64,000 nt of DNA from Octopus vulgaris (GCA_951406725.2 OX597827.1:79980001-80044000); one strand, 5' to 3'; positions 29,372 to 59,842 are shown, counted from the stretch's first letter. Numbers and translations: made by a program. The notes: generated by a model from the letters alone, not told the origin.

Positions 29372-31720
29372 CCTGGTTGATTTCTGGAGTGTTCTGTTCA
29401 TTGTAGACATCTTCCAGTCATCTGGATAGTAATGGCTCTTCGAATGACCATATCTGTCTGATATCTCTCCTCGATTACCTGACATCACAGACACACTGTT
29501 GTTACCTTGATAGATCAACTGTCTCATCTCATTGCGACATTGGTATGCCTGTTTCTCTTCTGCTGTTCTTTCAGATGAGCTATTTCTCACATTGTTACAT
29601 CTCACAATACACAGGGTTATAGAAACCACAATAGCTATAGATACTATCACAGCTGCTACTACAATGATAATCAACAATGTCGCATCTATTGTGTTATCAC
29701 TTGGTAGGTGCACAGCTGTGAACATTGGTGACGTCTTGTTACTAACAGTCAGTGTCAAAGACACACTAGTTGTTGCTGACAGAACTGGAGTACCACTGTC
29801 TTTCACAACAAACTCAAGCTTATATGATCCGGCATCATTTTGGTAAACTGTGCGAGAGTAAGATAACACACCAGTGAACGAATCCAGTTTAAATAACTGT
29901 CTCTCGTTACCTGAAACGATTTCATACCTGAGAAAAGCATTCATGTGACTGTCTATATCAGATGCTTTCAGAACTGTGATGTCGTTCTTACTTTGCGGAT
30001 GATAGTGGACATTAAGAGTGAAAGGGTCAACACTAGGAAATGTAAAATATGGAGCATTATCATTTCTATCCAATACTTCCACTTCAACATTCACTGTGTT
30101 ATTCAGAGATGGGCTTCCATTGTCTTTCACAAAAACCTCAAACTCATAGAAATCTCTGTGTTCTCTGTCTAAAGACTGGTTTGTTGAAATAAAGCCAGAG
30201 TTGATAATCTGGAATGGCAGACGATATTGCTGTTTATTTCTCAGAGAATAAGACAATTCACCTCCCTTACCAATATCTGGGTCTGTAGCATTGATAAAGC
30301 CAATAGGGAAATTAGCTTTGTCATTCTCATAGGTAAGGAACTTGAATGTGTCTTTCGTAAAGTGTGGTTCTACATCATTCACATCTAACACTTGGATTGA
30401 CAGATCTTTATCAGTTTTCAGAGCAGGTAATCCTTTATCTTCACACGACACAGTAAAGTGATAATGTTCCTGTGTCTCTCTGTCTACTGCTTTCTTTAGA
30501 ACTATTTTATATTCCTTCGATCCCATTGACTGTAGTTTGAATGTGTCATCTTTGATATGACAGTTCACCTGTCCATTGTGTCCAACATCATTGTCAGTGA
30601 CCATCACATAAGCAATGAAACTACCAACTTTGATGTCTTCCAGAATGGTAGCTGTGTTGTGATTCTGTGTAGAAATAAAGTTCACATCAATATTTGGGGG
30701 ATTGTTTTGTTGGTTGATGACATTTACCATAACAGTTGCTATGGAACTGAGGGGAGGTTTGCCACCATCTCTGGCTTCAATGTATAATTTAAATGATTTC
30801 TTCTTTTCTAAATTAGAATGTTTAGACTGGAATATTTCCCCTGATTGCTGTTCTATCCTAAAGTTGTTCATTGACTCTTTAGATGTTAATGAACTGATAT
30901 AATATGAAACTTTACCATTCTCTCCAATATCAGAGTCTTCTGCCAACATTACAACAACTGGTCTATTCCTTTGATGGTTATTTTGTATGGAGACATTGTA
31001 TGTTTTCTCAGAGAAAATTGGTCTGTTATCATTTTCATCTTTCACAGTTATGTGCACATTTAAGACACCCTGTTTGGGTGGATTGCCTCCATCCTTAGCA
31101 ATCACTTCTATATTATAGCTATCTTTCGTCTCCCTATCTAACTTTGCTTCTAAAACGATTTCTAATGATAGCAAACTATCTGCTATCTGAAATGTGGACA
31201 AAGAAAACTGTAGGTTATTTCCCTTCAATTCGTAATTCACTAATCTGTTCTGTAATCCAACATCTTTGTCAATCGCATTGGGAATCGATTGTTTTGTACC
31301 TTTACCTTCAGTTTCAGAATATTCCAGTTTAATTTCTTCGACAGGAAACTCTGGTTGATGGTCATTGATGTCTTCTATAATCACCTTAATTTTCAATATC
31401 TTTATAAATTTACCTGCTTTATGAACGGCTACCTTAATTGTGTGAAAGCATTCTTTCTCAAAAGTACACAGAGACTCAGCATCCAGTGTTTGTGTGGTGT
31501 ATATCTTCCCAGTGGTGGTCACATTAAACAGCTGTGTTCCCTTCTGTTGCAACTGACTGAACGATAATAATGCAGTGTCCTTTAACTGGGAATCAGCAGT
31601 AATGTCTCCTATGTTGATAACAGGACTGTTCTCTTCTTTCACATGGTAAACAATGTCTTTAGAGACAGAACAGTGAAGCAGAGACTGTAATATCCAAATC
31701 GCTATTAAGACCATCTTCAT
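29372..31720 (-). CDS. Pcdh: Protocadherin A, large coding exon (signal peptide, EC1-EC6, TM, proximal cytoplasmic tail; 783 codons)
   Basis: ORF with hydrophobic N-terminus, cadherin motifs (EDINDHQPEF, LDRE, DENDNRPIF, DVNDVEPHF, DRNDNAPYF), EC1 CX5C (CTFEKEC) and TM LLIIIVVAAVIVSIAIVVSITLCIV. Ends at phase-0 donor AGG|GTAAGT at 29372; acceptor TTTTCAG starts the exon at 31748. Confidence 0.95.
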
Positions 31721-33070
31721 TTGTTGAGTTTAATACCAGTCAATTGATCTGAAAATATAAAGGTACACAACTGCCAGTCACATTACAGAAACAAATAACA
31801 GATTTATAATATTTATTCTCTTAACCACAGCAAAATAAACATCTTTTTATTATATTAAATGTTTTCATTCTTTCTTGCTTTACCTTCATTAATCACAATA
31901 ATACCCAATATATTATATTTATAAAATGTGTAACGAAGCAGTATTAAGTTCATTATTGTTGCATAATTTACAGGAAGATGCGAGTTCTAATTTCCATCTT
32001 TGCTTCATTAACTAAACTTTAAAATACAATATTTTAAGCAGAATGTCACAGAATTCCAAGGAGCGATACTTGTTGTTTGTAAGAATGTTATATATGAAAT
32101 ATAAAGTATTTAATTGTCTTTTTAACTGATTTGGATAGATATTGGAGTGCTGTGATGTAACTGAGTGAAAAAAAACACAGCCAACCACCTCATCATGTAC
32201 AATCTATTTAATCACTCAAGTTAGATTTCATTCTTACCAGGAAATAAGAGAGAAGGACCATTGTAAATAATCCAAACTTTTCCTGATAAAGGATGAGTGT
32301 CTAGAGACATCAGAGTTAAGTAGACACAGAAACAGGAGATGATATGGAGAAGCTAGGCATGGAAGCTAAAAGATCTATGACTGTAGGGAGAAAGATTGAA
32401 ACACTTGCACCATAGATTGACTACTGAGAATTACAGCAAAATAATCTGCAAGGGCCATGGGATCTGAGTGACTCCCATTGAAACTGACGGTGACATGACG
32501 GCAGAATGATATAAAAGACAAAGAGACAGGCTTGGAAAACCCAGAAGGAAGGTGGTTGTAGGGAGCATTATCAAACAGCATGAAGGGTAGCTAGGCAAAC
32601 AGGTGTACATACTCAGCTCAGGGTAGGGCAGAAAAGAAGAAATTTGCACATGTTCTGCAACATAAGGATCAGCAACATGAAGTGTTGAGGATTGTAAGAC
32701 AATGTGAGTTAAAGAGAACTCAGATACCATTGGTGAGAAGTAAATTTGGAATTATGAAGGCACACTGGCCATTGCCATGGAAGATAAGAGACAAGGGAGT
32801 GCTTTTAGGAGAGGTTGTCGAATGTGGAGAATGGGGGGGGCTACTTCATGTTGAGCCTACAGAGGACCAGCAATTCAAGTTGACAGCAATGGTAAAGAAA
32901 TGAAGAGAAAGCAAGTTGTAGGGTCATCAAGGACAGATGTAGAGATGTCCAAGAGATCTGGTAAAGTAAGCTATATAGGATTACCACTTGGACAGGAAAT
33001 CAGGTTATACAATGACTGACATAACGGTATCACAGTGAACTGATACAAAAACAAAGGAGATGCCTTAGAG

Positions 33071-33601
33071 CAGGGGTTCCCAACTGATTTTTGGCCATGC
33101 CACACCGGATCATTTCTAAAATCCTGATGCCCTCTTTGTGATATTTAATTTTTGTTATTCAAAATTTGGTTAATGTTTACAATATTACCTGGAAACAAAA
33201 AAAAAAAAGAAAGAATAGTGCAACAGATGTAAAAAAATGTCTGGGAGGCACACATACGAGTTTACCTACGTTGTTTTCACATACCACTATATTGAAGGAA
33301 ATAATTTTATTCCCACTTTAGAGACATCAGATCTTATGAATAGAGCTGATGAAAATGCCATGACCTTGATGTCTCTAAAGTGTCAAATTTTAAATAACTT
33401 GATGTCTCTAAAGTGTCAAAAATTTAGTATACTTGTCCACAGAAGGGATGTAAAGAATTTTTTTTTTGTTAATAATTCATTCTCAAATTGCCTCTCTTTC
33501 TCTATTGAGATGCTAAACATTGAGTACAAAAGGTATAAGTTCAACATAACCCTACACATGCCTCACCAAAATATTACCATGCCCCACGTTGGGAATCACA
33601 A
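33071..33601. mobile_element. hAT-like non-autonomous element
   Basis: Begins CAGGGGTTCCCAAC and ends GTTGGGAATCAC (degenerate TIR). Confidence 0.5.
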
Positions 33602-34830: not shown

Positions 34831-37490
34831 ATCCACCCTTCCATGGAACAATGTACCCAAACACAAGTATAAGGATTAAAAGGCAATAACAATGATATGT
34901 ATATAGTGCTCTCCGTCAAGCCAGCCTTACCCCATGTGACCTTAAACTTCCCTTCCATGATTCCCACCTCTTCATTGCTCACAGAGCACTCCTTCCCAAG
35001 TTACCTCTATTGTTACCCCAAACTTATAGTTGTCTCATTAACCACCCCTGTATCCCAAGAATGCCCACTAGCATTTCTTTCCCTTTCTGTACCCTCTCTT
35101 CCCCTTGTCCTTTCCACTATCTCTCCATCTACTGTACTTTTGCAGCATCCACACCCAGCTCTCCCTCTCCTTCCTCCCTCCCTCCAGGGCCTCCTTTATG
35201 CCTCTTCAACAACCTTTCTCATCACTCCAATCCCCTCACCTACCCCACCACCACCACCACCACACCCCGCTTTCTTTCCATGATTCTCTCAGGATTCCAC
35301 TCCACCCTCATCTATTGTTCCCTTTCCCTCAGCCCTTGTGTTCCATAGCCTTCAACTCCTCCTCCTCCTCACACAACCCACCTAATCAGCTCTTCAACTC
35401 GATCCCTCCATTTTTCTCGACCTTGTCACCAACCCTTTCCCCCCTCTCCTGTTCCTTGCTACATTCCCCATTCTCTCCTCTTACCATCCCTCATCCACCT
35501 TTCCCACACTCTCTTCTACTCTCTCTCAGTTACAGGCGTCACTTAAGGGCTCCAGTTTTGCAAGTAATCAGACAGACATCACAAGTGCTGGTGCCACAAA
35601 ATGTCCACCCAGTTCACTCTGTGCAGCGGTTGACATTAGGACGGGTATCTAGCCACAGGAACCATTCCAGTGTACACACTTGCACATGACAGTCCACTAA
35701 CTTGACAGCCTCTATCAAAGTGTCCAACCCATACCAGCATCCTCCTCATCATCATCATCATGAACCTTCAATGTGGTTAAACAGCCAATCCCAACCAGTA
35801 GGGATCCACAGTACAGCTTGTACTATTCATCATTTTGATTGCTGAATACCAAACCCAGCTCACAAGACCTCCATTCAGATGAGTCCATCACAAGGTGTGG
35901 CCACAGGATGCAAGTGAATGAGAACTGCTGCTTGCTTAATGGGGTGTGGGACCCTCAGAAGAGGAACACTCAGGAAGATATGGGATGAAGTGGTGAAAGC
36001 TGACCTCAGCACTTTGCACCTCATGGATGAGATGACAAAGGACTGGGATCTCTCATAATATAAGGTTCTCAAAAGTACTGGGACTGAGTCCTTGAAGTGC
36101 TATATTTTGGAGACTCAATCTGTTTCAGAAATTCCCTCCCCTCACATGCTACATTTATCTCTTCCTCCACCCCCTCGTCCACCCCACCATCAGCAACTGT
36201 AGCATCATTACTACACTTGCTATGCCCTTTTCTCCCCACTCATCTGCATCCCTCAATCATCCTGAACTCACAACTCTTGTCTCCTACCCATTTTGGCAGT
36301 CTGCCCTACCCTTCATTCACCTTCCCAAACGAACTTATAAATTACCTTCACACACACACACACTTCTACCCAGCTTGTGCCTTGTGGGGTAACCCAAATC
36401 CCTTATCACCACTATGTTTTACAGCTCCTACACATCATTTTCCCTTCTTTATCCTTCTCTCTCTCTCCCCCCTTCCCTCCCTTTCAAGCTGCAAACTGCA
36501 TTGTGACCCCAGCAGTGCATGTGGCATGTAAAGCACACTCAGCCCATGCTATAAAGTGGTTGGGGGTTACGAAGGGCATCCAGCTGCAAAAACCATACCA
36601 AAGCGGACACTGGAGCTCCATGTCATCCTTGGAGGCACTGGTTCCCATCAAACGGTCCAATCCATGTCAGCATGGATAATGAACATTCAATGATGATGAT
36701 GAAGTTCTCTTTCATACACAAATGACAAATGCGTTATAAAAATACCATTATTGTATTATGAAGACAATAGTGTAATTCAAAGTAAATACAGTTCTCTTAG
36801 TCAATAAATTTTTACAGAAATATCTAATGACAGAAAACCTCCTCCATCAACACCACATTTAATTAAAAGACATTCATTAAACAAGACCAAAGATGACAAT
36901 GTTTTGGTATGAATGCAACAAATAGATTAAAACCAATAAACTTAGAATTTAGAAAGAGTTAAATGATACCACAACACAATATTGATGATTTATGTTGACA
37001 CTAAACCACCATCTTGTCAACTCTTCTCCCAGTTTCACTTTAATATTCTATATTAATATAACCCATTCTTACATATAAACACAATAATGATACTTGACTC
37101 TCTCAAAACATCCTTCACAAGAAACACTCAAATTCTTTTAAATACACACAATAAAGAACATCTTCTGGTTATATATTATACATTATCAATACTGATAATA
37201 ATTATGAAGATGTCTGCAAATAAGAGACAACAAACTGACTGGATTTAAATATATTTCACTTGGAAAATAACCATAATTAAATATTATTTCACACTTCCTA
37301 ACAGCAAAATATCAATCATGAACATATAAATATCAAGAGAAAGCGTGTAACTGGCAAAGACCATATTTAAATGTCTACTGACATAATTTCTATTTGTTAT
37401 ATTCTATAGTAAAAGATGGCTGAAGAAAGTTTCTACAACAATCATCAGTCAAATATCTTAATAATACAAAATAAACATTCATAGACTTAC

Positions 37491-37990
37491 CTTCATTGTG
37501 TGTAAAATCCTTTGTTGTATAAACTGTGACTTGGTCCCAATGTTCTGTTGTTAATGGTTGTCTGTGTCACTGCTGCTATGGTGTGACAATAGGCTTCATG
37601 TTGATGGAATAGTGTTGGTGGTGAGTCAGTGGGAACCAGCAGTTCCCTCTCAGTCTTCCTTTGTGGATGTGTGGTGTTTAGTGAGTGTGTGTGTGTGTGT
37701 GCATGTAAATGAGAGAGGGGGTGGGAGAGAAAGATGGGTGATGCTTGCTCCAGCATCACAAAGAAGAGGGAAAGGAAGGGAGAGAACAAACAATATCAGC
37801 TCCACTAACAGTCAGCCATAAGAAGTCTATATAACACCAACATGTCTGATGTGGAGAGAGAGAGAGAGACTGGCATAGATATATATATATATATTCAGTG
37901 TTTCATACGGATCTCATATTAACAAAACATCACTGATATTGGTAAATATATTACTAACAAATGATGTTAATATAGAACAGTTCTGGTTAA
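37491..37990 (-). promoter_or_regulatory. Putative promoter and non-coding exon 1 of protocadherin A
   Basis: Conserved block found upstream of each large exon, ending in a strong donor AAG|GTAAGT (37491/37490). Contains TGAGTCA (AP-1 consensus) and (GA)n/(CA)n tracts. TSS position unknown. Confidence 0.7.
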
Positions 37991-38487
37991 GATGTGTCTG
38001 ACCTAAATATACACCCAACCTATAATGGAGGATGTAGGAACAAATAGAGAAGGGATATTCTAATTTTCAGGCAGGTTTATTTTGGTATCATTTTTAAATA
38101 TAATTTCCTAAGTCTTAGATTTTAAAAACACTGTTGTAAAAAATAGAGAAATATATTTTAAATGTATTCTAATTTAATTTTAGATATATTTGAGAAATTT
38201 CATAAAGAGCACATAACTCAGAATATATTAGAAATTTCATAAAGAGCACATAACTGAGAATATCAGAGAAAATATTGGCTGAAATAATATAATATGTGAA
38301 ATTCTTTGTATATAAATATTAAAATGTTGCTGACTTCATTGTTAGTGTCTATATATTCTGTAATAGGTTGGTATATGATATTGCAACTGTAAGGTAAAGT
38401 TAGATGTTATGATATTTATGTGTGTAGGAAGAGTGTCATATTTGAAATCCTGTTGGAAGGGGTCAATATTTAGTAAATGACCAATGG

Positions 38488-38606
38488 TCAGTTAGTAATG
38501 ACATCTGGTGTTGAAGGTAACTGTCTCTCTGGAGGTTTCACATATCTGTCTTGATACTGTTGTCTTTCGGGGTTCACTGGTGTATCCTGTTGGCTACCAT
38601 AGATCC
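38488..38606 (-). CDS. Pcdh: Protocadherin B terminal coding exon
   Basis: Copy of the 27598-27716 exon, TGA at 38488-38490. Confidence 0.85.
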
Positions 38607-38731
38607 CTGCAAAAGATTGTTTTAATTAATTACATCTCAGAATTAATTACATCTCAGTCTACAACAATAATTAGTACAATAATTAGTAATGAATTAGTGT
38701 AATATTAAATGAGAATGGATTGTTATCCTAC

Positions 38732-38885
38732 CTGACATTGCTGGTATTTCTTCATACTGTCTACTTGACCGCTCACTCCAGCACTGTCCACTGCTCTTAC
38801 GACTGGTCAGTGTGTCAGTGGGATAGTGAGAAGACGGTCTGTTGTCTCCATAAGATGTCACCTCAATCGGTTGACTGTATTTCTG
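38732..38885 (-). CDS. Pcdh: Protocadherin B cytoplasmic exon (154 nt)
   Basis: Copy of the 27885-28038 exon with intact splice sites. Confidence 0.85.
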
Positions 38886-41032: not shown

Positions 41033-43381
41033 CCGTGTAGATTTCTGAAGTGTTCTGTTCATTGTAGACATCTTCCAGTCATCTGGATAGTAATGGCTCC
41101 TCGAATGACCATATCTGTCTGACATCTCTCCTCGATTACCTGACATCACAGGTACACTGTTGTTACCTTGATAGATCAACTGTCTCATCTCATTGCGACA
41201 TTGGTATGCCTGTTTCTCTTCTGCTGTTCTTTCAGATGAGCTATTTCTCACATTGTTACATCTCACAATACACAGGGTTATAGAAACCACAATAGCTATA
41301 GATACTATCACAGCTGCTACTACAATGATAATCAACAATGTCGCATCTATGGTGTTATCACTTGGTAGGTGCACAGCTGTGAACATTGGTGACGTCTTGT
41401 TACTAACAGTCAGTGTCAAAGACACACTAGTTGTTGCTGACAGAACTGGAGTACCACTGTCTTTCACAACAAACTCAAGCTCATATGATCCGGCATCATT
41501 TTGGTAAACTGTGCGAGAGTAAGATAACACACCAGTGAACGAATCCAGTTTGAATAACTGTCTCTCGTTACCTGAAACGATTTCATACCTGAGAAAAGCA
41601 TTCATGTGACTGTCTATATCAGATGCTTTCAGAACTGTGATGTCGTTCTTACTTTGCGGATGATAGTGGACATTAAGAGTGAAAGGGTCAACACTAGGAA
41701 ATGTAAAATATGGAGCATTATCATTTCTATCCAATACTTCCACTTCAACATTCACTGTGTTATTCAGAGATGGGCTTCCATTGTCTTTCACAAAAACCTC
41801 AAACTCATAGAAATCTCTGTGTTCTCTGTCTAAAGACTGGTTTGTTGAAATAAAGCCAGAGTTGATAATCTGGAATGGCAGACGATATTGCTGTTTATTT
41901 CTCAGAGAATAAGACAATTCACCTCCCTTACCAATATCTGGGTCTGTAGCATTGATAAAGCCAATAGGGAAATTAGCTTTGTCATTCTCATAGGTAAGGA
42001 ACTTGAATGTGTCTTTCGTAAAGTGTGGTTCTACATCATTCACATCCAACACTTGGATTGACAGATCTTTATCAGTTTTCAGAGCAGGTAATCCTTTATC
42101 TTCACACGACACAGTAAAGTGATAATGTTCCTGTGTCTCTCTGTCTACTGCTTTCTTTAGAACTATTTTATATTCCTTCGATCCCATTGACTGTAGTTTG
42201 AATGTGTCATCTTTGATATGACAGTTCACCTCTCCATTGTGTCCAACATCATTGTCAGTGACCATCACATAAGCAATGAAACTACCAACTTTGATGTCTT
42301 CCAGAATGGTAGCTGTGTTGTGATTCTGTGTAGAAATAAAGTTCACATCAATATTTGGAGGATTGTTCTGCTGGTTGATGACATTTACCATAACCGTTGC
42401 AATGGAACTGAGAGGAGGGTTGCCCCCATCTCTGGCTTCAATATACAATTTGAATGATTTCTTCTTCTGTAACTCAGAATGTTTGTTCAAGTAAAGCTCT
42501 CCCGAATCTGAATCTATTAAGAAATGATGTTTTGCATTTGTTGATGTTGTTGGACTGAAATGATAAAAAACTTTACCATTCTCTCCAATATCAGAATCTT
42601 TTGCCAACATGACAATAACTGGTATATTTCTTTGATGGTTACTTTGTATAGAGACATTGTATGTTTTATCAGAGAAAATTGGTCTGTTATCATTTTCATC
42701 TTCCACAGTTATGTGCACATTTAAGACACCCTGTTTGGGTGGAGTTCCTCCATCCTTAGCAATCACTTCTATATTATAGCTGTCTTTCGTCTCCCTGTCT
42801 AACTTCCCTTGTAATATAATTTCCAGAGATGATACTCCATCAGCTCTTTGGAATGTGGTCAATGAAAACTGTTGGTTATTTCCCTTCAATTCGTAATTCA
42901 CTAATCTGTTTTGTAATCCAACATCTTTGTCAATGGCATTGGGGATGGACTTTTTCCTACCTTTTCCATCTCCTTCTCTAAGCTCCAGTTTAATTTCTTC
43001 GACAGGAAACTCTGGTTGATGGTCATTGATGTCTTCTATAATCACCTTAATTTTCAAAATCTTTATAAATTTCCCTGCTTTATGAACTGCTACCTTAATT
43101 GTGTGAAAGCATTCTTTCTCAAAAGTACACAGAGACTCAGCATCCAGTGTTTGTGTGGTGTATATCTTCCCAGTGGTGGTCACATTAAACAGCTGTGTTC
43201 CCTTCTGTTGCAACTGACTGAACGATAATAATGCAGTGTCCTTTAACTGGGAATCAGCAGTAATGTCTCCTATGTTGATAACAGGACTGTTCTCTTCTTT
43301 CACATGGTAAACAATGTCTTTAGAGACAGAACAGTGAAGCAGAGACTGTAATATCCATATCGCTATTAAGACCATCTTCAT
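41033..43381 (-). CDS. Pcdh: Protocadherin B, large coding exon (783 codons)
   Basis: Near-identical paralogue of A. True ATG (MKMVL) at 43381, acceptor at 43410-43411, donor CGG|GTAAGT at 41033; same 2349-nt coding length. Confidence 0.95.
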
Positions 43382-45640: not shown

Positions 45641-47311
45641 ATGCCTTTTTCAGGGCGAGGAAATGGGGGTGGGAGTGGATGTAGTTTGGTTGTTATATGA
45701 GCAGATCAAACAATCTGATACACGTTCCCCTCCCCCTGGTTCAAACGTTGACACAGAGTTACTTTCCTTTAGTGTCCAGCACCATTCATATATGAAACAC
45801 AATGGGAAAATGACACAGTAAATTGAAAAGCTAGAGAACTACCAGAAAGGAACAAAAAATGCATAGATATCAATGTTAAACATTAAGGAGGTAATAAGCA
45901 AAGATTTTCTCATAAGGAACAAGTCTGAGAGTAATGGTGAATATATATTTCACACAGTAACTTTCTAGAATTGTCTGAGAGACAGAATTTAAGGAAAAGT
46001 TAAAATTGCAAGGGAAACAACATAAAATATAAATTGAAAAGAAAACACAAATGATTTACAGTAAATACTAATCAATATTCTTCATTTCTCTGCAAAGATT
46101 CTTATGGTTTCAGTGGATCAGTTTTAGAAGTTCTAATTAAAAATATTGCTATCAAATTTTGGCACACAGACAGCAATTTCAAGGGATGGGGCAATTCTCA
46201 ACTGATACTGAATTTATCAACCCCAAAAAGAATGGGAGAGAAAGTCTACCTCACCAGAATTTGAACTCAGGACATAAAGGCAGAGGAACTGCCACTAAGC
46301 ATTTTGCTTAGTGTGCTTATGATTCAGCCAAGATAGCTGAAAAATTAGCAAGGTTGGATTTGTTTTCTATAAAACACTATGTGATATCTCATATATAGAA
46401 ATGACAAATAATAAAAAATACATATATATTAAATGTATGATATATTATATAATAAATCCAACTGCAGTGGTTAATGGTAAATGTTGTGTTTAAAGGTGTA
46501 TAGATGCGATGGGCATGTGTATGCCTTTCAAGTAACCAAAGGAAAGGAAGTGTTAATTTTTACACAGCTCCCTTGGTCAATAAATTCATATTCATTTTTG
46601 TTTTTCAAAGAAACATCTAATGACAGAAAGCCTCTTTTAGCAACACTGCAAATCTGAATAATACCAGATTTAATTAGAAGACATTCATTAAACAAGACCA
46701 AAATAGGACACTGTTTCAGTATGAATACAACACACAGATTAAGACCAATAAAATTTTATATTAAATTTAGAAAGACTTAAATAATATCACAACACAATAT
46801 TGATTATTTATGTTGACACTAAACCACCATCTTGTCAACTGTTCTCCCAGTTTCACTTTAATATTCTATATTAATATAACCCATTCTTACATATAAACAC
46901 AATAATGATACTTGACTCTCTCAAAACATCCTTCACAAGAAACACTCAAATTCTTTTTTTAAATACACACAATAAAGAACATCTTCTGGTTATATATTAT
47001 ACATTATCAATACTGATAATAATTATGAAGATGTCTGCAAATAAGAGACAACAAACTGACTGGATTTAAATATATTTCACTTGAAAAATAACCATAATTA
47101 AATATTATTTAACACTTCCTAAGAGCAAAATATCAATCATGAACATATAAATATCAAGAGAAAGCGTGTAACTGGCAAAGACCATATTTAAATGTCTACT
47201 GACATAATTTCTATTTGTTATATTCTATAGTAAAAGATGGCTGAAGAAAGTTTCTACAGCAATCATCAGTCAAATATCTTAATAATACAAAATAAACATT
47301 CATAGACTTAC

Positions 47312-47830
47312 CTTCATTGTATGTAAAATCCTTTGTTGTATAAATTGTGACTTGGTCCCAATGTTCTGTTGTTAATGGTTGTCTGTGTCACTGCTGCTAT
47401 GGTGTGACAATGGCTTCATGTTGATGGAATAGTGTTGGTGGTGAGTCAGTGGGAACCAGCAGTTCCCTCTCAGTCTTCCTTTGTGGATGTGTGATGTTTA
47501 ATGAGTGTGTGTGTGTGCATATGCGTGTAAGAGAGAGAGAGAGAGAGGAGGGATGGGTGATGCTTGCTCCAGCCTCACACACACAAGATGCTGTGTTTCC
47601 CTCAAAGAGAAGAGAGAAAGAAAGAAAGAGAACAAACAATATCAGCTCCACTAACAGTCAGCCATAAGAAGTCCATATAATACCAACATGTCTGATGTGG
47701 AGAGAGAGAGAGAGAGAGAGAGAGACTGGCATAGATATTCAGTGTTTCATACGGATCTCATATTAACAAAACATCACTGATATTGGTAAATATATTACTA
47801 ACAAATGATGTTAATATAGAACAGTTCTGG
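47312..47830 (-). promoter_or_regulatory. Putative promoter and non-coding exon 1 of protocadherin B
   Basis: Copy of the same block with donor AAG|GTAAGT at 47312. Confidence 0.7.
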
Positions 47831-48278
47831 TTAAAATGTGTCTGACCTAAATATACACCCAACCTATAATGGAGGATGTAGGAACAAAAGAGAAGGGATA
47901 TTCTAATTTTCAGGCAGGTTTATTTTGGTATCATTTTTAAATATAATTTCCTAAGTCTTAGATTTTAAAAACTCTGTTGTAAAAAATAGAGAAATATATT
48001 TTAAATGTATTCTAAATTAATTTTAGATATATTTGAGAAATTTCATAAAGATTATGCAAAATTCCTGTGTGTGTGTGTGTATTTATGGATAGAAGTTGAA
48101 ATCTGTCTGACTTCCAGTTAGTGTGTATGTATTGTATAGTATGCTGATATATAATATTGTAATTGTGAGGAAAATATAAAACGTCTGTATTTTTCAAAAC
48201 TTGTATGAGTGTGTGGTTAGAGGTTCATATTTGAAATGGTATTGGTAAGGGGTCAATATTTAGTTAAGTGACCAGTGG

Positions 48279-48397
48279 TCAGTTAGTAATGACATCTGGT
48301 GTTGAAGGTAACTGTCTCTCTGGAGGTTTCACATATCTGTCTTGATACTGTTGTCTTTCGGGGTTCACTGGTGTATCCTGTTGGCTACCATAGATCC
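48279..48397 (-). CDS. Pcdh: Protocadherin C terminal coding exon
   Basis: Copy of the conserved terminal exon, TGA at 48279-48281. Confidence 0.85.
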
Positions 48398-48555
48398 CTG
48401 CAAAAGAGTGTTTTAATGTAGAAATGTCTGAAACAATCACCATCATCAGAAATACTCTACGGACACACAGACAGAACTAATTATATCTCAGAGTCTACAA
48501 CAATAATTAGTAATGAATTACTGTAATATTAAATGAGAATGGATTGATATCCTAC

Positions 48556-48709
48556 CTGACATTGCTGGAATTTCTTCATACTGTCTACTTGACCGCTCAC
48601 TCCAGCACTGTCCACTGCTCTTACGACTGGTCAATGTGTCAGTGGGATAGTTAGAGGATGGTCTGTTGTCTCCATAAGATGTCACCTCAATCGGTTGACT
48701 GTATTTCTG
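48556..48709 (-). CDS. Pcdh: Protocadherin C cytoplasmic exon (154 nt)
   Basis: Copy of the conserved exon with intact splice sites. Confidence 0.85.
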
Positions 48710-49930
48710 CTGTAAAATACAACAGCAACCAGAAACACTTAAAGAAATCATTCATGATTGACAATGTTAATGAGTAACTCGTTATAATGTTGTTGCATCT
48801 ATAGAAAGATGCAGGGCATCATAATAACCATAATAATCATCAATTAATGTCCATGTCCAAGACTGCCATGGACTGAATGGTTTAACAGGATCTGATGGGG
48901 CAAAAGACTGCATCGTATTCCAGCCCTCAGCTTTTCTATCGCTGGATGCATTTCCTAACACCAACCATTTTACACCATGCACAGGGTGTGTTTTTAGTGC
49001 CACTGGTACGAGCAAGTTCAGCATTTGGCTTACAAGACTAGGGAATCCCAAGGACGGGGCCTTTATGGCAGGAGATAAGGGTTAAGGTATGAGAAAAGGT
49101 GGGACAGAGAAGGTTCTCATTGTAAAGGAGCTACTTGGTAATTAACGTAGTGATAGGTAATGAGGCGTCCAGGAGGTAGTTCAGGGTATGAGAGGAGTGG
49201 AAGTGGGTGGGGACAGAGAAATTAGGAGCATGAGGAGGTGGGGGTTTCAAAGAGATGGGTAAAATGGAAGACAGTAAGGGAAGGAATCCAACATCTGTAA
49301 AGATTGGGTTAAGTTGAAGGGTGTTGCAGGAGAGGTGAGAGCAGAGATCGTATGTAATCTGGTGGTTTGTGAGGGGACAAGGATAACAGGGGAAAGAACT
49401 ATAATCCTTACATATGGGTGCAGAGAACACTCTGAATGGTAGAAGGAAAAATCAGAAAATGATGAGAGGATTACAGTGGGAGAGATGAAGGGATGACATG
49501 AGGAATTTGGATGGGCCCATTTGTGCACATATATGTAATATATGCACATTTAATGCATCCAGAAGTGACTTTTGCCATGATGCATGGGTCTCCGTGAGTA
49601 TTACACATTACATGACGCCCTTTTTCTTGTTCTTTGTTCTCACACCTCGATGAGTCTCAGTATCCTCAGGGCAACCAACAACACTTCATAACATTACTCA
49701 AATTTCAAAAATCATTTCCACCATTTCAAACTTATAGCAGAAATCAATATTCATTGATTGTAAAATCTTGATACAATCACATTTCATGACAAACTTGTCA
49801 GAACAATCTAAAGGACAATTTCACTTTAGATGTAAATATTGGCAAATCACTTTTAAGAATATTCTAAGTGCAGCTTTCTGATTGTCCCCGAAAGAAAATT
49901 GAATATTTATGAAATATTTACTGGTGCTGC

Positions 49931-50541: not shown

Positions 50542-52890
50542 CCGTGTAGATTTCTGAAGTGTTCTGTTCATTGTAGACATCTTCCAGTCATCTGGATAGT
50601 AATGGCTCCTCGAATGACCATATCTGTCTGTCATCTCTCCTCGATTACCTGACATCACAGGTACACTGTTGTTACCTTGATAGATCAACTGTCTCATCTC
50701 ATTGCGACATTGGTATGCCTGTTTCTCTTCTGCTGTTCTTTCAGATGAGCTATTTCTCACATTGTTACATCTCACAATACACAGGGTTATAGAAACCACA
50801 ATAGCTATAGATACTATCACAGCTGCTACTACAATGATAATCAACAATGTTGCATCTATTGTGTTATCACTTGGTAGGTGCACAGCTGTGAACATTGGTG
50901 ACGTCTTGTTACTAACAGTCAGTGTCAAAGACACACTAGTTGTTGCTGACAGAACTGGAGTACCACTGTCTTTCACAACAAACTCAAGCTCATATGATCC
51001 GGCATCATTTTGGTAAACTGTGCGAGAGTAAGATAACACACCAGTGAACGAGTCCAGTTTAAATAACTGTCTCTCGTTACCTGAAACGATTTCGTACCTG
51101 AGAAAAGCATTCATGTGACTGTCTATATCAGATGCTTTCAGAACTGTGATGTCGTTCTTACTTTGCGGATGATAGTGGACATTAAGAGTGAAAGGGTCAA
51201 CACTAGGAAATGTAAAATATGGAGCATTATCATTTCTATCCAATACTTCCACTTCAACATTCACTGTGTTATTCAGAGATGGGCTTCCATTGTCTTTCAC
51301 AAAAACCTCAAACTCATAGAAATCTCTGTGTTCTCTGTCTAAAGACTGGTTTGTTGAAATAAAGCCAGAGTTGATAATCTGGAATGGCAGACGATATTGC
51401 TGTTTATTTCTCAGAGAATAAGACAATTCACCTCCCTTACCAATATCTGGGTCTGTAGCATTGATAAAGCCAATAGGGAAATTAGCTTTGTCATTCTCAT
51501 AGGTAAGGAACTTGAATGTGTCTTTCGTAAAGTGTGGTTCTACATCATTCACATCCAACACTTGGATTGACAGATCTTTATCAGTTTTCAGAGCAGGTAA
51601 TCCTTTATCTTCACACGACACAGTAAAGTGATAATGTTCCTGTGTCTCTCTGTCTACTGCTTTCTTTAGAACTATTTTATATTCCTTCGATCCCATTGAC
51701 TGTAGTTTGAATGTGTCATCTTTGATATGACAGTTCACCTCTCCATTGTGTCCAACATCATTGTCAGTGACCATCACATAAGCAATGAAACTACCAACTT
51801 TGATGTCTTCCAGAATGGTAGCTGTGTTGTGATTCTGTGTAGAAATAAAGTTCACATCAATATTTGGGGGATTGTTCTGCTGGTTGATGACGTTTACCAT
51901 AATGGTTGCTATGGAACTGAGAGGAGGGCTGCCACCATCTCTGGCTTCAATATATAATTTAAATGATTTCTTCTTTTCTAAATTAGAATGTTTAGACTGG
52001 AATATTTCCCCTGATTGCTGTTCTATCCTAAAGTTGTTCATTGAGTCTTTAGATGTTAAGGAACTGATATAATATGAAACTTTACCATTTTCTCCAATAT
52101 CAGAGTCTTTTGCCAACATGACAATAACCGGTATATTCCTTTGATGGTTACTTTGTATAGAGACATTGTATGTTTTATCAGAGAAAATTGGTCTGTTATC
52201 GTTTTCATCTTTCACAGTTATGTGCACATTTAAGACACCCTGTTTGGGTGGATTGCCTCCATCCTTAGCAATCACTTCTATATTATAGCTGTCTTTCGTC
52301 TCTCTGTCTAACTTTCCTTCTAAAACGATTTCTAAAGATAGCAAACTATCTGCTATCTGAAATGTGGACAAAGAAAACTGTTGGTTATTTCCCTTCAATT
52401 CATAATTCACTAATCTGTTCTGTAATCCAACATCTTTGTCAATCGCATTGGGGATGGACATTTTCATACCTACTCCATCACCTTCCTCAAAGGTTAATTG
52501 AATTTCTTCGACAGGAAACTCTGGTTGATGGTCATTGATGTCTTCTATAATCACCTTAATTTTCAATATCTTTATAAATTTGCCTGCTTTATGAACTGCT
52601 ACCTTAATTGTGTGAAAGCATTCTTTCTCAAAAGTACACAGAGACTCAGCATCCAGTGTTTGTGTGGTGTATATCTTCCCAGTGTTGGTCACATTAAACA
52701 GCTGTGTTCCTTTCTGTTGCAACTGACTGAACGATAATAATGCAGTGTCCTTTAACTGGGAATCAGCAGTAATGTCTCCTATGTTGATAACAGGACTGTT
52801 CTCTTCTTTCACATGGTAAACAATGTCTTTAGAGACAGAACAGTGAAGCAGAGACTGTAATATCCATATCGCTATTAAGACCATCTTCAT
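50542..52890 (-). CDS. Pcdh: Protocadherin C, large coding exon (783 codons)
   Basis: Near-identical paralogue; acceptor at 52919-52920, donor CGG|GTAAGT at 50542. Confidence 0.95.
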
Positions 52891-54850
52891 TTGTTGAGTT
52901 AAATGCGAGTTAATTAATCTGAAATTATGAGAGAAAAATGTCTTTCATATGTGAAGAAACAATAAAATATCGTTGGTAAAACGTAGAAATATAATATGTA
53001 AAACATGAAAAGCAACTTAGAATGGTCTGTAGTGTGGAATAGTATATCGGTGGAGGGGAAATGGTTGCACCCATAACTTAGCAGAGCATGAAGATGAGTT
53101 TGCCTGATGCAGGTCAAAGGCAGGAGAACGGTAGGATGCATCAGAGTTTAGGAGAGAAACAAATAAGAATATTTGTTAATATTATGGCTTGATTTGAGAG
53201 GAGGTGCACAGCTGGCTGAATCTATGAAGCAGAATCACATCTGTATGCATATCACTGATATGATTTACATTACACTGTCATTTACTGCAACAGTTCCATT
53301 GTGTTAATGGTTGTGTCCATGCTGGAGCACAATAAGTAACAACTATAGATGTTACCTTGGCAATTATCAAAATTTAACTATTAAAGAGAGACATTAAATG
53401 ATGGTGGTGGTGGTGATGGTCCAGATATGTCTCCATGATTCGATGTAGTTTCATCAAATTCTTTTAAAATGACTGAATTCAGCCATACCACACTTACCTA
53501 ATAACGTCACTTAGTACTGTTCCAATCTGATATACAATAGTATATTATATAAAATACTTTTAAAGATAATTTCTTAAACCAAAATTAAAATAACATTATC
53601 TTCTCTTGATAATGTTGACTGTTAAATTATTCTAGGAAATTTTCTGTACATTGAAATCAGTTAAATTACTGCAGAAACATGAATATTGATATTTCACCAA
53701 TGGTATAATCAGCAGAAGTATTAGTACTATGAATAAATATTCAAAAAAATAAGATATATAAATGAAATGGATTGATAAAATACATTTACAGTATATTTAT
53801 ATCAAATATATTATTATTTTTACTATTATCATTATTATTATTATGATTATTATTATTATTATGATTATTATTATTATTATGATTATTATTATTATTATGA
53901 TTATTATTATTTATTATTTATTGTGATTTAATGCAATCTTAGTATACTCTGACCTATATGACAAAAGACAAAAACGAATCAAGGGTAGCTATATTTCTTA
54001 AGCTACCAATAGTTATCATCATCATCATCATCATTTAACGTCCGCTTTCCATGCTGGCATGGGTTGGACTATAATATATTAATAATAATTCATTTGTATA
54101 TAGTTTTTAAGAAACAAATTGCCTTCAACAAGAGATTTTTTAAGTCAATGAAGGAAGGAAAATACAACTGGGATAAGATACACATAAATCTATAAAGCAA
54201 TATTTAATTAAAATATATATTTATAAACAAGACCAATATGATACTATTTCACCTTAAAGGCAGCAAATACATTAAAACCAATAAAATCTGATACAATATT
54301 AAATTTAGAAAGACTTAAATAATACCACAACACAATATTGATTATTTATGTTGACACTAAACCACCATCTTGTCAACTGTTCTCCCAGTTTCACTTTAAT
54401 ATTTTATATTAATATAACCTATTCTTACATATAAACACAATAATGATACTTTTGACTCTCTGAAAACATCCTTCACAAGAAACACTCAAATTCTTTTTTT
54501 AAATACACACAATAAAGAACATCTTCTGGTTATATATTATACATTATCAATACTGATAATAATATGAAGATGTCTGCAAATAAGAGACAACAAACTGACT
54601 GGATTTAAATATATTTCACTTGAAAAATAACCATAATTAAATATTATTTCACATTTCCTAACAGCAAAATATCAATCATGAACATATAAATCTCAACAGA
54701 AAGCGTGTAACTGGCAAAGACCATCTTTAAATGTCTACTGACATAATTTCTATTTGTTATATTCTATAGTAAAAGATGGCTGAAGAAAGTTTCTACAACA
54801 ATCATCAGTCAAATGTCTTAATAATACCAAATAAACATTCATAGACTTAC

Positions 54851-55380
54851 CTTCATTGTGTGTAAAATCCTTTGTTGTATAAACTGTGACTTGGTCCCAA
54901 TGTTCTGTTGTTAATGGTTGTCTGTGTCACTGCTGCTATGGTGTGACAATGGCTTCATGTTGATGGAATAGTGTTGGTGGTGAGTCAGTGGGAACCAGCA
55001 GTTCCCTCTCAGTCTTCCTTTGTGGATGTGTGATGTTTAGTGAGTGTGTGTGTGTGTGTGTGCATATGCGTGTAAGAGAGAGAGAGAGAGAGAGAGGGAG
55101 GATGGGTGATGCTTGCTCCAGCCTCACACACACAAGATGCTGTGTTTCCCTCAAAGAGAAGAGGGAAAGAAAGAAAGAGAACAAACAATATCAGCTCCAC
55201 TAACAGTCAGCCATAAGAAGTCCATATAATACCAACATGTCTGATGTGGAGAGAGAGAGAGAGACTGGCATAGATATATATATATATTCAGTGTTTCATA
55301 CGGATCTCATATTAACAAAACATCACTGATATTGGTAAATATATTACTAACAAATGATGTTAATAAAGAAAAGTTCTGGT
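54851..55380 (-). promoter_or_regulatory. Putative promoter and non-coding exon 1 of protocadherin C
   Basis: Copy of the same block with donor at 54851. Confidence 0.7.
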
Positions 55381-55814
55381 TAAGATGTGTCTGACCTAAA
55401 TATACACCCAACCTATAATGGAGGATGTAGGAACAAATAGAGAAGGGATATTCTAATTTTCAGGCAGGTTTATTTTGGTATAATTTTTAAATATAATTTC
55501 CTAAGTCTTAGATTTTAAAAACACTGTTGTAAAAAATAGAGAAATATATTTTAAATGTATTCTAATTTAATTTTAGAGATATTTGGGAAATATCATAAAT
55601 ATTATGCAAAATTCCTCTCTGTGCATGTGTGTGTGCACGTGTGTGTGTGTGTTGCTGACTTCATTATTAGTGTGTATGTATTATATCATATGTTTGGTAT
55701 ATAATATTGTAACTGTAAGGTAAAGAGAAAACTTCTGCATTTGTTTAAATTTGTATGTGTGTGTTGATGGAAATGTCATTGTAAAGGGTCAATATTTAGT
55801 TAAATGACCATTGG

Positions 55815-55933
55815 TCAGTTAGTAATGACATCTGGTGTTGAAGGTAACTGTCTCTCTGGAGGTTTCACATATCTGTCTTGATACTGTTGTCTTTCGGGGT
55901 TCACTGGTGTATCCTGTTGGCTACCATAGATCC
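55815..55933 (-). CDS. Pcdh: Protocadherin D terminal coding exon
   Basis: Copy of the conserved terminal exon, TGA at 55815-55817. Confidence 0.85.
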
Positions 55934-56091
55934 CTGCAAAACATTGTTTTAATGTAGCAATGTCTGAAACAATTATCATCATCAGAAATACTCTAGGGAC
56001 ACACAGACAGAACTAATTACATCTCAGAGTATACAACAATAATTAGTAATGAATTACTGTAATATTAAATGAGAATGGATTGTTGTCCTAC

Positions 56092-56245
56092 CTGACATTG
56101 CTGGTATTTCTTCATACTGTCTGCTTGACCGCTCACTCCAGCACTGTCCACTGCTCTTACGACTGGTCAGTGTGTCAGTGGGATAGTGAGAAGATGGTCT
56201 GTTGTCTCCATAAGATGTCACCTCAATCGGTTGACTGTATTTCTG
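56092..56245 (-). CDS. Pcdh: Protocadherin D cytoplasmic exon (154 nt)
   Basis: Copy of the conserved exon with intact splice sites. Confidence 0.85.
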
Positions 56246-57493
56246 CTGTAAAATATTATTGTATCCAGTTATAACAAAATGACGTGCCTCTGTAATCTAA
56301 AATATGCTTAGTACAAAATTCTAAAAGAAACAGATTTAACTGTCACATAGGTAATAATATCACTATATCATCTAAATATATTTTACATGTTTCTTTATTA
56401 AACAATTGTTTATGAAATAATTCAGAAACTCATTTTGCCACAATCCACAATGAATGCGAATAACGTCACACATACACCATGAGAAGGGATATACGAAGGT
56501 GTTTTCATAACAAATATTGATCAAATATTAATAGAAATTCATAAAGAGAAAATTATTGGTGAGATACTTTCAGAAGTCTTTGGATGTTTTGTAATAGGAA
56601 ACAACATTGCCAGTGACTTGCAGTTGAAATGATGCTATATAAGACTGTTCTTAAAAGTGCCATGTATTTACATAGCAGCTTTCATATCTTATTAAATATT
56701 AATACAGTGAATCTATTAGCAATTCATTTTCATTCTCTGTCCACAGTTACTTGTATGGTGAACCAGCTGTTATTACCTGAGATTAGAGATATGATTTCCA
56801 ACTATACTATGTGGTCAATGTCAGTTGTTGCTTGGAATATTTAACACATGAGCAAGTATTGCAGCTAACATGAAGTCAGATCTGTCATCCAGTTTGAGAA
56901 TATGTGTCAACTTAAATTTCTCAAGTTCTTGGAAGAGCTCTTGGTATTCAGACAGAACCCACACCAACAGAAAATGAAGGGCTGAAATACTGTTATTGAT
57001 ATTCATCAATGGTAAAACTTTACAACTTGTTCAATTCAAGAGGGAATCTTTCAATCAGGATATATACAGACGTTACTGTGTGATTTTTTTCCCACTTTCC
57101 TACAAAGTGTACCCTGTAAGCAAATCAGCATTCAATTTGTTCACAAACTATACAATGTATGGAACATTAGATGAATGTCTACATTTATCTAGCAGAATGA
57201 CCTTTATCAAGATTCAAATGGTTAACAAATGTCTTCCACTATCAGAATATGGTTTCAGAAAGAGTTAGTAGTTTACGATGCGTTGCATATTGTGTACTAT
57301 AACTTTTAATCGACAATCTTTTCTACGAAATGATCTTCTTTCATAACAATTCTGCTTAAGCAATAACAATGAAAAATGACATAATTTAGCAGTTGTAATT
57401 CATACAACATTACATTTATCCAGAGATGAAACAAATTAGGCATTTAATTTGGAGATTATTTACTTGAAGATGTTTACTGGAAATAGAGCTTAC

Positions 57494-59842
57494 CTTTGTA
57501 GATTTCTGAAGTGTTCTGTTGATTGTAGACATCTTCCAGTCATCTGGATAGTAATGGCTCCTCGAATGACCGTATCTGTCTGACATCTCTCCTCGATTAC
57601 CTGACATCACAGGTACACTGTTGTTACCTTGATAGATCAACTGTCTCATCTCATTGCGACATTGGTAGGCCTGTTTCTCTTCTGCTGTTCTTTCAGATGA
57701 GCTATTTCTCACATTGTTACATCTCACAATACACAGGGTTATAGAAACCACAATAGCTATAGATACTATCACAGCTGCTACTACAATGATAATCAACAAT
57801 GTCGCATCTATTGTGTTATCACTTGGTAGGTGCACAGCTGTGAACATTGGTGACGTCTTGTTACTAACAGTCAGTGTCAAAGACACACTAGTTGTTGCTG
57901 ACAGAACTGGAGTACCACTGTCTTTCACAACAAACTCAAGCTCATATGATCCGGCATCATTTTGGTAAACTGTGCGAGAGTAAGATAACACACCAGTGAA
58001 CGAATCCAGTTTAAATAACTGTCTCTCGTTACCTGAAACGATTTCATACCTGAGAAAAGCATTCATGTGACTGTCTATATCAGATGCTTTCAGAACTGTG
58101 ATGTCGTTCTTACTTTGCGGATGATAGTGGACATTAAGAGTGAAAGGGTCAACACTAGGAAATGTAAAATATGGAGCATTATCATTTCTATCCAATACTT
58201 CCACTTCAACATTCACTGTGTTATTCAGAGATGGGCTTCCATTGTCTTTCACAAAAACCTCAAACTCATAGAAATCTCTGTGTTCTCTGTCTAAAGACTG
58301 GTTTGTTGAAATAAAGCCAGAGTTGATAATCTGGAATGGCAGACGATATTGCTGTTTATTTCTCAGAGAATAAGACAATTCACCTCCCTTACCAATATCT
58401 GGGTCTGTAGCATTGATAAAGCCAATAGGGAAATTAGCTTTGTCATTCTCATAGGTAAGGAACTTGAATGTGTCTTTCGTAAAGTGTGGTTCTACATCAT
58501 TCACATCCAACACTTGGATTGACAGATCTTTATCAGTTTTCAGAGCAGGTAATCCTTTATCTTCACACGACACAGTAAAGTGATAATGTTCCTGTGTCTC
58601 TCTGTCTACTGCTTTCTTTAGAACTATTTTATATTCCTTCGATCCCATTGACTGTAGTTTGAATGTGTCGTCTTTGATATGACAGTTCACCTCTCCATTG
58701 TGTCCAACATCATTGTCAGTGACCATCACATAAGCAATGAAACTACCAACTTTGATGTCTTCCAGAATGGTAGCTGTGTTGTGATTCTGTGTAGAAATAA
58801 AGTTCACATCAATATTTGGAGGATTGTTCTGCTGGTTGATGACATTTACCATAACAGTTGCTATGGAACTGAGAGGAGAGTTACCACCATCTCTGGCTTC
58901 AATGTATAATTTAAATGATTTCATTTTGTCAAATTGCGATTCTTTGGCTAAGAATATTTCTCCAGTTTTCTCATTTATAATAAAATTATCTTTTGAATCT
59001 GTTGATGTTGTTGGGCTGATATAATATGAAACTTTACCATTTTCTCCAATATCAGAGTCTTCTGCTATCATTACAACAACTGGTCTATTTCTTTGATGGT
59101 TATTTTGTATGGAGACATTGTATGTTTTCTCAGAGAAAATTGGTCTGTTATCATTTTCATCTTCCACAGTTATGTGCACATTTAAGACACCCTGTTTGGG
59201 TGGAGTTCCTCCATCCTTAGCAATCACTTCTATATTATAGCTGTCTTTCGTCTCTCTGTCTAACTTCCCTTGTAATATAATTTCAAGAAATGATACTCCG
59301 TCTGCTCTTTTGAATGTGGACAAAGAAAACTGTTGGTTATTTCCCTTCAATTCGTAATTCACTAATCTATTCTGTAATCCAACATCTTTGTCAATGGCAT
59401 TGGGAATCGATTGTTTTGTACCTTTCCCATCTGCTTCTCTAAATTCCATCTTAATTTCTTCGACAGGAAACTCTGGTTGATGGTCATTGATGTCTTCTAT
59501 AATCACCTTAATTTTCAATATCTTTATAAATTTACCTGCTTTATGAACGGCTACCTTAATTGTGTGAAAGCATTCTTTCTCAAAAGTACACAGAGACTCA
59601 GCATCCAGTGTTTGTGTGGTGTATATCTTCCCAGTGTTGGTCACATTAAACAGCTGTGTTCCCTTCTGTTGCAACTGACTGAACGATAATAATGCAGTGT
59701 CCTTTAACTGTGAATCAGCAGTAATGTCTCCTATGTTGATAACAGGACTGTTCTCTTCTTTCACATGGTAAACAATGTCTTTAGAGACAGAACAGTGAAG
59801 CAGAGACTGTAATATCCAAATCGCTATTAAGACCATCTTCAT
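57494..59842 (-). CDS. Pcdh: Protocadherin D, large coding exon (783 codons)
   Basis: Near-identical paralogue; acceptor at 59871-59872, donor AAG|GTAAGC at 57494. Confidence 0.95.

Follow-up and report, generated by a model that had tools for sequence, protein, structure and literature searches.

A patchwork of EC2-EC3 segments ahead of homogenised domains in a tandem array of octopus protocadherin genes

How do neighbouring genes that are mutually 94% to 97% identical come to carry different combinations of the same short segments? The question is raised by a stretch of 64,000 nucleotides from Octopus vulgaris (here called the window), located on contig C14 of the 2.8-Gb genome G000, which contains four colinear open reading frames on the minus strand with start codons at positions 31720 (gene A), 43381 (B), 52890 (C) and 59842 (D). 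Each frame represents exon 1 of a protocadherin with six extracellular cadherin (EC) repeats, and ends at a GTAAGT splice donor after codon 783. Two further close copies, E and F, were located just outside the window, and genes A to F are all complete three-exon units with their own exons 2 and 3 for the cytoplasmic tail. The Pfam matches were to Cadherin (5.7e-73) and Cadherin_2 (4.6e-8), with EC1 being of the Cadherin_2 type, and the sequence matched EC1-6 structures in the PDB over its full length. A search with the EC2-EC3 part of gene A, in which 40 of 134 candidates were scored and 30 loci were fetched, revealed a tandem array: of the 40 scored matches, 37 shared the minus strand and a segment of about 1 Mb on contig C14. 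An earlier note, made from the DNA alone, had described a cephalopod array in which EC2-EC3 cassettes are shuffled, and the origin agreed: the closest relatives were octopod proteins from O. sinensis, O. bimaculoides and Argonauta (92%, 90% and 73% identity over residues 120-345), and EC1 was 0 to 1 residue away from O. sinensis proteins.

To set the domain limits, the motifs of the linkers were used together with an AlphaFold2 model covering EC1-EC4 (mean pLDDT 84.5). Four variable blocks, here referred to as EC2a, EC2c, EC3a and EC3b, were distinguished within EC2 and EC3 (Table 1). The motifs quoted in the earlier note were all found, as were the four combinations of EC2c and EC3a types, which are a/a in A, b/b in B, a/b in C and b/a in D. 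In line with the note, A and C were only 1 residue apart in the late EC3 segment (residues 272-307), PTTST was common to B and D, and GKGTKQ to A and D. When E and F were included, EC2c separated A and C from B, D, E and F, whereas EC3a separated B and C from A, D, E and F; EC3b was of three types (A and C; B; D, E and F) and EC2a paired B with F, C with E and A with D. All six genes thus had distinct block combinations; EC2a was the chief difference among D, E and F, and EC2a together with EC3a that between A and C.

Among the 57 quartet-informative sites in A to D, the grouping AD|BC was supported by 6 of 7 sites at codons 137-146, AC|BD by 19 of 20 at codons 149-227, AD|BC again by 7 of 8 at codons 238-261, and AC|BD by 15 of 15 at codons 277-299, a clustering with p=4e-5. 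A test modelled on the pairwise homoplasy index (PHI) gave p<=5e-5 for the four and for the six genes, also with one site per codon, and p=2e-4 over EC2-EC3 in each of two other subfamilies (12 and 6 genes; the frameshifted loci L015 and L024 were left out of the 12-gene set, which is the second subfamily). In approximately unbiased (AU) tests of the six genes, the EC2a, EC2c and EC3a trees were rejected on one another's data (p-AU<=0.004), in line with the earlier claim that no single tree fits. The per-block trees of the aligned paralogues that the note had proposed were in conflict for these three blocks, but EC2c and EC3b yielded an identical topology; the EC3b data did not reject the EC3a tree (p=0.058). 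The Hudson-Kaplan method indicated 26 intervals over the exon in the six genes, a number that is inflated by recurrent mutation.

Because EC2c and EC3b share one tree, a single short tract in EC3a suffices for the four combinations. The limits of this tract were nucleotides 714-781 on the inside and 638-828 on the outside, corresponding to 68 to 190 nt, within an unchanged EC2c/EC3b frame. Since the tract is internal, it must have been moved by gene conversion or double crossover, and one unequal crossover does not account for it. The exchange postulated in the earlier note is real and inherited. Breakpoints within EC3a itself were found in the O. sinensis protein P0004 and in a contig of sequencing run X11. 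The EC2-EC3 region is thus a patchwork with variable breakpoints, very probably caused by germline gene conversion, and best read as a variant of known concerted evolution and not as a cassette system.

It was also noted that loci L001-L030 and octopod proteins have a few motif types of the EC2 A'-B region (codons 131-146) in common, irrespective of subfamily and species. These types showed no excess of synonymous identity across subfamilies (0.503 vs 0.496, p=0.60), and transfer between subfamilies is therefore not claimed; their recurrence reflects either convergence or an exchange in the distant past.

Other octopod assemblies and samples contained the combinations of the window or additional ones. 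The O. sinensis protein P0002 is a/b/1 (EC2c/EC3a/EC3b) like C but with an A-like EC2a, the O. bimaculoides protein P0121 is a/a/1 like A but with an EC2a resembling those of C and E, and P0004 is b/hybrid/3. Contigs were checked in 8 of the 24 listed runs; these are graph contigs from runs whose RNA status was guessed, with differences taken from tables. A 316-nt contig of X1 was identical to A (0 differences) across EC3a-EC3b, and a 174-nt contig of X14 joined the type-a residues N213/K227 to E238/N247. In X11, one contig differed from B at three sites, those expected of the EC3a block of C, and a B-like contig had N247 and K252 before b-type residues and the F272/H274 of B. The b/a/3 combination was found in three separate copies with their own flanks. 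This recurrence makes an assembly chimera unlikely, and the combinations common to several species indicate a germline origin.

Two of the blocks stayed together. In the A-F subfamily (11 sequences), EC2c of type a occurred with EC3b of type 1 in 5 of 5 cases and EC2c of type b in 0 of 6, and all four combinations of EC2a and EC3a were present on the a...1 background. In the second subfamily (14 genes), T180 was accompanied by A276/T300/S302 in 7 of 7 genes as compared with 0 of 7 of the others, r2 was at most 0.33 at codons 185-264 and over EC2a, and a perfect balanced pair was obtained in 3.3% of permutations over 5175 state pairs (p=0.033). In Argonauta (15 proteins), L182 occurred with I275 in 5 of 5 as compared with 1 of 10 proteins (Fisher p=0.002), and positions 275 and 278 were the best EC3 partners. 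The two loops, the EC2 D-E hairpin and the EC3 C-D loop, are thus associated in three gene sets, with totals of 11/11, 14/14 and 14/15.

A covariation analysis was performed on 146 sequences, made up of 30 loci and of 116 proteins retained from 130 by filtering on identity and coverage, with G000 duplicates down-weighted. The top covarying pair between EC2 and EC3 was 179:277 (z 7.3). When stratified within subfamilies, the block z value was 1.94 for the D-E hairpin and the C-D loop, the highest of 30 block pairs, and 0.46 for the D-E hairpin and EC3a; the top stratified pair, 209:254, was judged to be a rare-variant artefact. Taken together, we find it reasonably likely that the coupling of the two loops is selective.

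In the AlphaFold2 model, residues 172-190 form the EC2 D-E hairpin and residues 272-289 strand C, a helix and strand D of EC3; the best fold matches were PCDH18, PCDH8.1, gammaC4 and alpha4, and no cephalopod structure was among the best 60 of 161 PDB matches. In the cadherin topology, the D-E hairpin of EC2 and the C-D loop of EC3 are located at opposite ends of EC2-EC3 and make no contact within one chain. In beta-protocadherin dimers, the text available from PMC5001838 describes an EC3 Phe-X10-Phe loop that wedges in trans onto the EC2 beta4-beta5 loop, both being specificity elements with isoform-specific residues, and PMC5106212 gives the EC2:EC3 pairs 111:294, 125:253 and 128:257 as well as specificity elements in EC1:EC4. 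The octopus proteins likewise have six EC repeats, and their variable blocks map on the EC2 beta4-beta5 and EC3 Phe-X10-Phe-like loops of this antiparallel EC1-EC4 trans-dimer (PMC5001838, PMC5106212, PMC6769022, as far as accessible). The background on which the earlier note relied, that EC2-EC3 set specificity in vertebrates, is borne out insofar as the variable blocks lie on or next to such elements, but it is incomplete, as EC1:EC4 also contributes (PMC5106212). The blocks likeliest to touch in trans do not recombine freely. A predicted complex of two EC1-EC4 copies of A had a score of 0.12 and a mark of 0.32, and was weighed neither for nor against binding.

We noted that the EC3-EC4 linker (window positions 30692-30716, codons 335-342 of A) reads N-Q-x-N-N-x-P instead of D-x-N-D-N-x-P; in alignment A1, the first position was D in 3 of 101 sequences and the fourth was N in all 101. 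EC3 was without a conserved DRE or PE motif, and the EC1-2 and EC2-3 linkers were invariant. The EC3-EC4 junction may bind little calcium and bend, and with an EC4 that is constant across subfamilies and a linker without the usual acidic calcium motifs, the geometry of the dimer may differ.

Downstream of the patchwork, the sequences were homogenised. The mean pairwise identity of 23 genes over about 215 kb was 99.0% in EC4, 100.0% in EC5, 99.2% in EC6 and 99.6% in the transmembrane segment (TM), whereas the EC1-EC3 blocks of the same genes were 63% to 81% identical and the end of EC3 86%. The proportion of synonymous differences (pS) in the 20 intact genes was 0 to 0.03 in EC4-TM as compared with 0.34 to 0.66 in EC1-EC3, and the GC content at third codon positions was nominally 0.33-0.37 in EC4-TM and 0.23-0.33 in the EC2-EC3 blocks. 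EC5 contained 0 segregating sites in 315 nt as compared with 42 in EC4-TM overall (p=6e-7 if uniform). It was also observed that a run of 343 nt in EC5 (about 30025-30367 in A) was invariant in the 23 genes, synonymous sites included (L001-L017, L019-L021, L024, L026 and L028), possibly because of a conversion hotspot or a recent sweep. Among the 13 listed Argonauta proteins of these subfamilies, EC4-TM was 96% to 100% identical, and EC4-EC6 was 94% to 96% identical to Octopus. The subfamilies are also present in Argonauta, as are both lineages of blocks (P0003 is a...1-like, P0006 b-like), and the block types therefore predate the split from Argonauta. Paralogues were nevertheless closer within than between species, synonymous sites included, and EC4-TM has thus been homogenised within species by concerted evolution.

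We consider it probable that the mosaics were made by germline conversion and that the two loops are coupled across the swapped DNA as a likely matched homophilic contact. Non-allelic recombination would start in the long identical stretches and copy tracts of tens to a few hundred bases, and selection would retain amino acid differences at the interface loops, leaving islands of divergence. As a homophilic receptor must fit itself, the swap of a single loop would be harmful; a tract replacing one of two matched loops would then be purged, and swaps of EC2a and EC3a would be tolerated, perhaps with an effect of fine-tuning specificity. With EC4 identical in the 23 genes, it would be EC2:EC3 that determines specificity among the members of a subfamily. 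By analogy, binding and dimer geometry in octopus would be as in vertebrate protocadherins.

Several results weigh against this reading, and other explanations have to be considered with them. No single read spans a junction: the raw-read run X22 gave 0 reads, hence no test, and the contigs are graph paths. Haplotypes or paralogues might have been switched at identical spacers during assembly, given the high identity of the genes, the b/b junction of B, whose markers are 36 nt apart and could not be phased with contigs, and the parts of B left uncovered in X17 (which had no cover over its EC3) and X3, although these gaps prove nothing. Such chimeras are nonetheless highly improbable, since C-type and A-type combinations recur in the O. 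sinensis and O. bimaculoides records, the junctions of A were bridged in X1 and X14 and that from the B-type K261 to F272/H274 in X11, and b/a/3 exists in three copies. Convergent amino acid substitution at a few selected sites, with no exchange of DNA within EC2-EC3, would agree with the lack of synonymous excess in the EC2a types and with the PHI-like test on synonymous sites only, which was not significant in A-F (26 sites, p=0.59) or the third subfamily (p=0.16); in the second subfamily (12 genes) it gave p=0.013. However, identical codons and identical runs of 62 to 73 nt were found between otherwise diverged genes, E and F had 0 differences over 114 nt and A differed from D, E and F at just 4 sites, and the synonymous sites 244 and 257 travelled with the swapped block, so that we give convergence hardly any weight.

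Conversion might also be real but suppressed by mismatches in the most diverged blocks, in which case an old gene tree would mimic the coupling without selection. Divergence is high in the EC2c core and in EC3b, where pS is 0.35-0.64 from type to type, one tract is enough for A to D, and common ancestry together with a mechanical resistance of diverged islands to conversion could mean that the coupling is retained ancestry. Of the 15 possible gene pairs, 7 were tested, and in all 7 the synonymous differences were concentrated at most 3 codons away from replacements (p 1e-4 to 0.018, the pairs being non-independent). This is the pattern of divergence islands described in the review PMC3924837, but neutral escape from conversion is also able to make such islands. 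The ratio of nonsynonymous to synonymous differences (pN/pS) was 0.26-0.48 in the four variable blocks and below 1 in all blocks, giving no direct sign of positive selection, which is therefore not claimed. Furthermore, a test of independent pairs for R179/P277 (145-row tree, 10 pairs) gave 3.2 the same way and 1.4 the other way (median p=0.625), the block-mean r2 of the D-E hairpin and EC3b in the second subfamily was just 0.11, with the coupling there resting on site 180, and the coupled residue pairs differed per gene set and were picked after looking. Yet EC2a is equally diverged (pS 0.46, pN 0.20) and freely mobile, a single nucleotide at codon 180 in the second subfamily holds r2=1 with its neighbours 179 and 182 at 0.2 and 0.5, and each of three gene sets points to these two loops; we regard a neutral origin of the coupling as unlikely. 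The free combinatorial cassettes of the earlier note, in which identical spacers would serve as fixed crossover points for four freely recombining blocks in the germline or in neurons, would fit the distinct combinations in all six genes, the identical runs of 34 to 73 nt that separate the blocks, and the four EC2a and EC3a combinations on one background. This claim did not hold, and we consider such a code quite improbable: EC2c and EC3b share a tree and were uncoupled in 0 of 11 sequences, breakpoints lie within the EC3a "cassette" (P0004 and the X11 contig), the Hudson-Kaplan intervals indicate that the boundaries are not fixed, and the combinations common to species point to the germline. 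Nothing in the data points to a somatic or dedicated diversification mechanism.

Likenesses to this patchwork can be sought in several known systems. Coleoid protocadherin sub-arrays (PMC9068888, PMC6339937, PMC9795677) likewise consist of complete multi-exon genes in tandem on the same strand, and recent duplication with homogenisation by conversion has already been proposed for them at the gene level (PMC9068888, PMC6339937); in the accessible parts, these papers treat whole genes and describe no domain-level pattern, EC2-EC3 patchwork or loop coupling. In a literature search that covered listings and the openings of abstracts, no publication came up in which cephalopod protocadherins were examined for EC2-EC3 mosaics or loop coupling, or subjected to binding assays. 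It was further noted that the burst at 8-14 Ma (million years ago) in the available text of PMC9795677 was derived by comparing paralogues in pairs; as Argonauta has the present subfamilies too, conversion may make them look young. We infer that whole-gene dating of a "recent burst" would be biased by the homogenised 3' half.

In vertebrate clustered protocadherins, the sections available for fugu (PMC1852091) and Xenopus (PMC4978886) describe a similar architecture, with a 3' part of exon 1 that is more than 99% identical from EC4/EC5, a divergent 5' part, a discrete boundary, and the lowest synonymous divergence in EC5/EC6. In those sections EC2-EC3 escape conversion, whereas EC2-EC3 are a patchwork in three octopus subfamilies. 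The octopus genes have their own tail exons, in agreement with PMC9068888, in contrast to the spliced constant exons of vertebrates, and the families expanded independently. Vertebrate clustered protocadherins are further characterised by strictly homophilic antiparallel EC1-EC4 binding, on which the octopus sequences bear only indirectly, through covariation, and by a stochastic choice of promoters in single neurons. Islands in homogenised duplicates, with short tracts that make haplotypes, are likewise known from opsin divergence peaks, MHC and self-incompatibility shuffling (PMC3924837, as far as available); unlike in these systems, two islands about 95 codons apart stay coupled in octopus, as expected of a self-matching homophilic receptor. 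Programmed cassettes, as in immunoglobulin gene conversion and antigenic variation, have fixed boundaries and combine freely, whereas the octopus genes have breakpoints in EC3a and a coupled EC2c/EC3b pair. Such systems also rearrange somatically and cell by cell from silent donors; A to F are intact genes.

Table 1. Features of the protocadherin genes, with positions counted from the first nucleotide of the window
Feature	Position	Strand	Remarks
Gene A exon 1	29372..31720	-	Signal peptide, EC1-EC6, TM, proximal tail; 783 codons; GTAAGT donor at 29371; EC2a "S-type", EC2c a, EC3a a, EC3b type 1
Gene B exon 1	41033..43381	-	EC2a common to F; EC2c b, EC3a b, EC3b type 2
Gene C exon 1	50542..52890	-	EC2a near that of E; EC2c a, EC3a b, EC3b type 1
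Gene D exon 1	57494..59842	-	EC2a hybrid with A-like end; EC2c b, EC3a a, EC3b type 3 (like E, F)
EC2a in A	31274..31330	-	Codons 131-149, from EC2 strand A' over the A'-B loop into the start of strand B; mobile and without coupling to other blocks
EC2a in other genes	B 42935-42991, C 52444-52500, D 59396-59452		
EC2c in A	31040..31213	-	Codons 170-227, with the D-E hairpin as core (177-192); coupling to EC3b
EC2c in other genes	B 42701-42874, C 52210-52383, D 59162-59335		
EC3a in A	30938..31009	-	Codons 238-261; EC3 strands A-B; swapped tract, 68-190 nt
EC3a in other genes	B 42599-42670, C 52108-52179, D 59060-59131		
EC3b in A	30800..30907	-	Codons 272-307; strand C, C-D helix or Phe-X10-Phe-like loop, strands D-E; three types
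EC3b in other genes	B 42461-42568, C 51970-52077, D 58922-59029		
Homogenised "constant" part of A	29591..30685	-	EC4-EC6-TM, codons 346-710; 99-100% mean pairwise identity, 23 genes
Gene A exons 2 and 3	27601..28038	-	Cytoplasmic tail; exon 2 ~27883-28038, exon 3 ~27601-27717; tblastn
Gene B exons 2 and 3	38491..38885	-	Ends approximate
Gene C exons 2 and 3	48282..48709	-	Ends approximate
Gene D exons 2 and 3	55818..56245	-	Ends approximate
Gene E exons 2 and 3	63001..63426	-	Exon 1 just past the window (L005, L031)

Outside the first exons, a stretch of about 2 kb located 3' of the tail exons was 92% to 96% identical among B, C, D and E (36849-38208, 46603-48732, 54202-56255 and 61325-63449), and the corresponding copy downstream of gene A (25443-27172) was rearranged with an internal duplication. 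At 9697-9774 on the minus strand, a stretch matching the last protocadherin tail exon in degenerate form (69%) was not accompanied by its own first exon within the window and is probably a relic. A plus-strand open reading frame of 205 amino acids at 35072-35689 was dismissed as pyrimidine-skewed, low-complexity DNA. Elsewhere in the array, exon 1 of L015, L017, L022 and L024 lacked one open frame from the signal peptide, and these loci are likely frameshifted copies or assembly errors; as frameshifted copies they could still serve as conversion donors. Locus L018 (G000:C14:80260750-80264450) is a domain chimera with EC1-EC3 of the second subfamily and the common EC4-EC5; its EC6 from about codon 584 onwards, its TM and its tail are unrelated in sequence. 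The O. bimaculoides record P0001 consists of two half-genes, each broken in EC4 and fused in one model, which is likely due to a collapse of the identical EC4-TM region in that assembly.

Trees of whole genes, the dating of a "recent" expansion, assembly from short reads and the assignment of reads are all likely to be misled by the homogenised 3' half of these genes. Conversion has already been published for cephalopod and fish protocadherins; for the EC2-EC3 patchwork and the loop coupling, the listings and abstracts searched gave no counterpart in cephalopods. A single neuron contains about 21 protocadherins, some of them enriched in cell types, according to the available text of PMC9712504, and nothing is known of the adhesion specificity of cephalopod protocadherins according to that of PMC6339937. 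It is conceivable, though doubtful, that the array works as a germline lock-and-key engine, in which an EC4-to-tail module kept constant by conversion in dozens of genes would replace the spliced constant exons of vertebrates, the D-E/C-D pair would evolve in step and define binding classes, and the mobile EC2 A'-B and EC3 A-B pieces would multiply the specificities per class. If so, new neuronal recognition codes would arise and segregate in populations, and would converge on the vertebrate EC2:EC3 interface. At the level of sequence, the natural mosaics speak for an EC2:EC3 contact like that of vertebrates in a family that expanded independently, and they form a ready-made panel for testing it.

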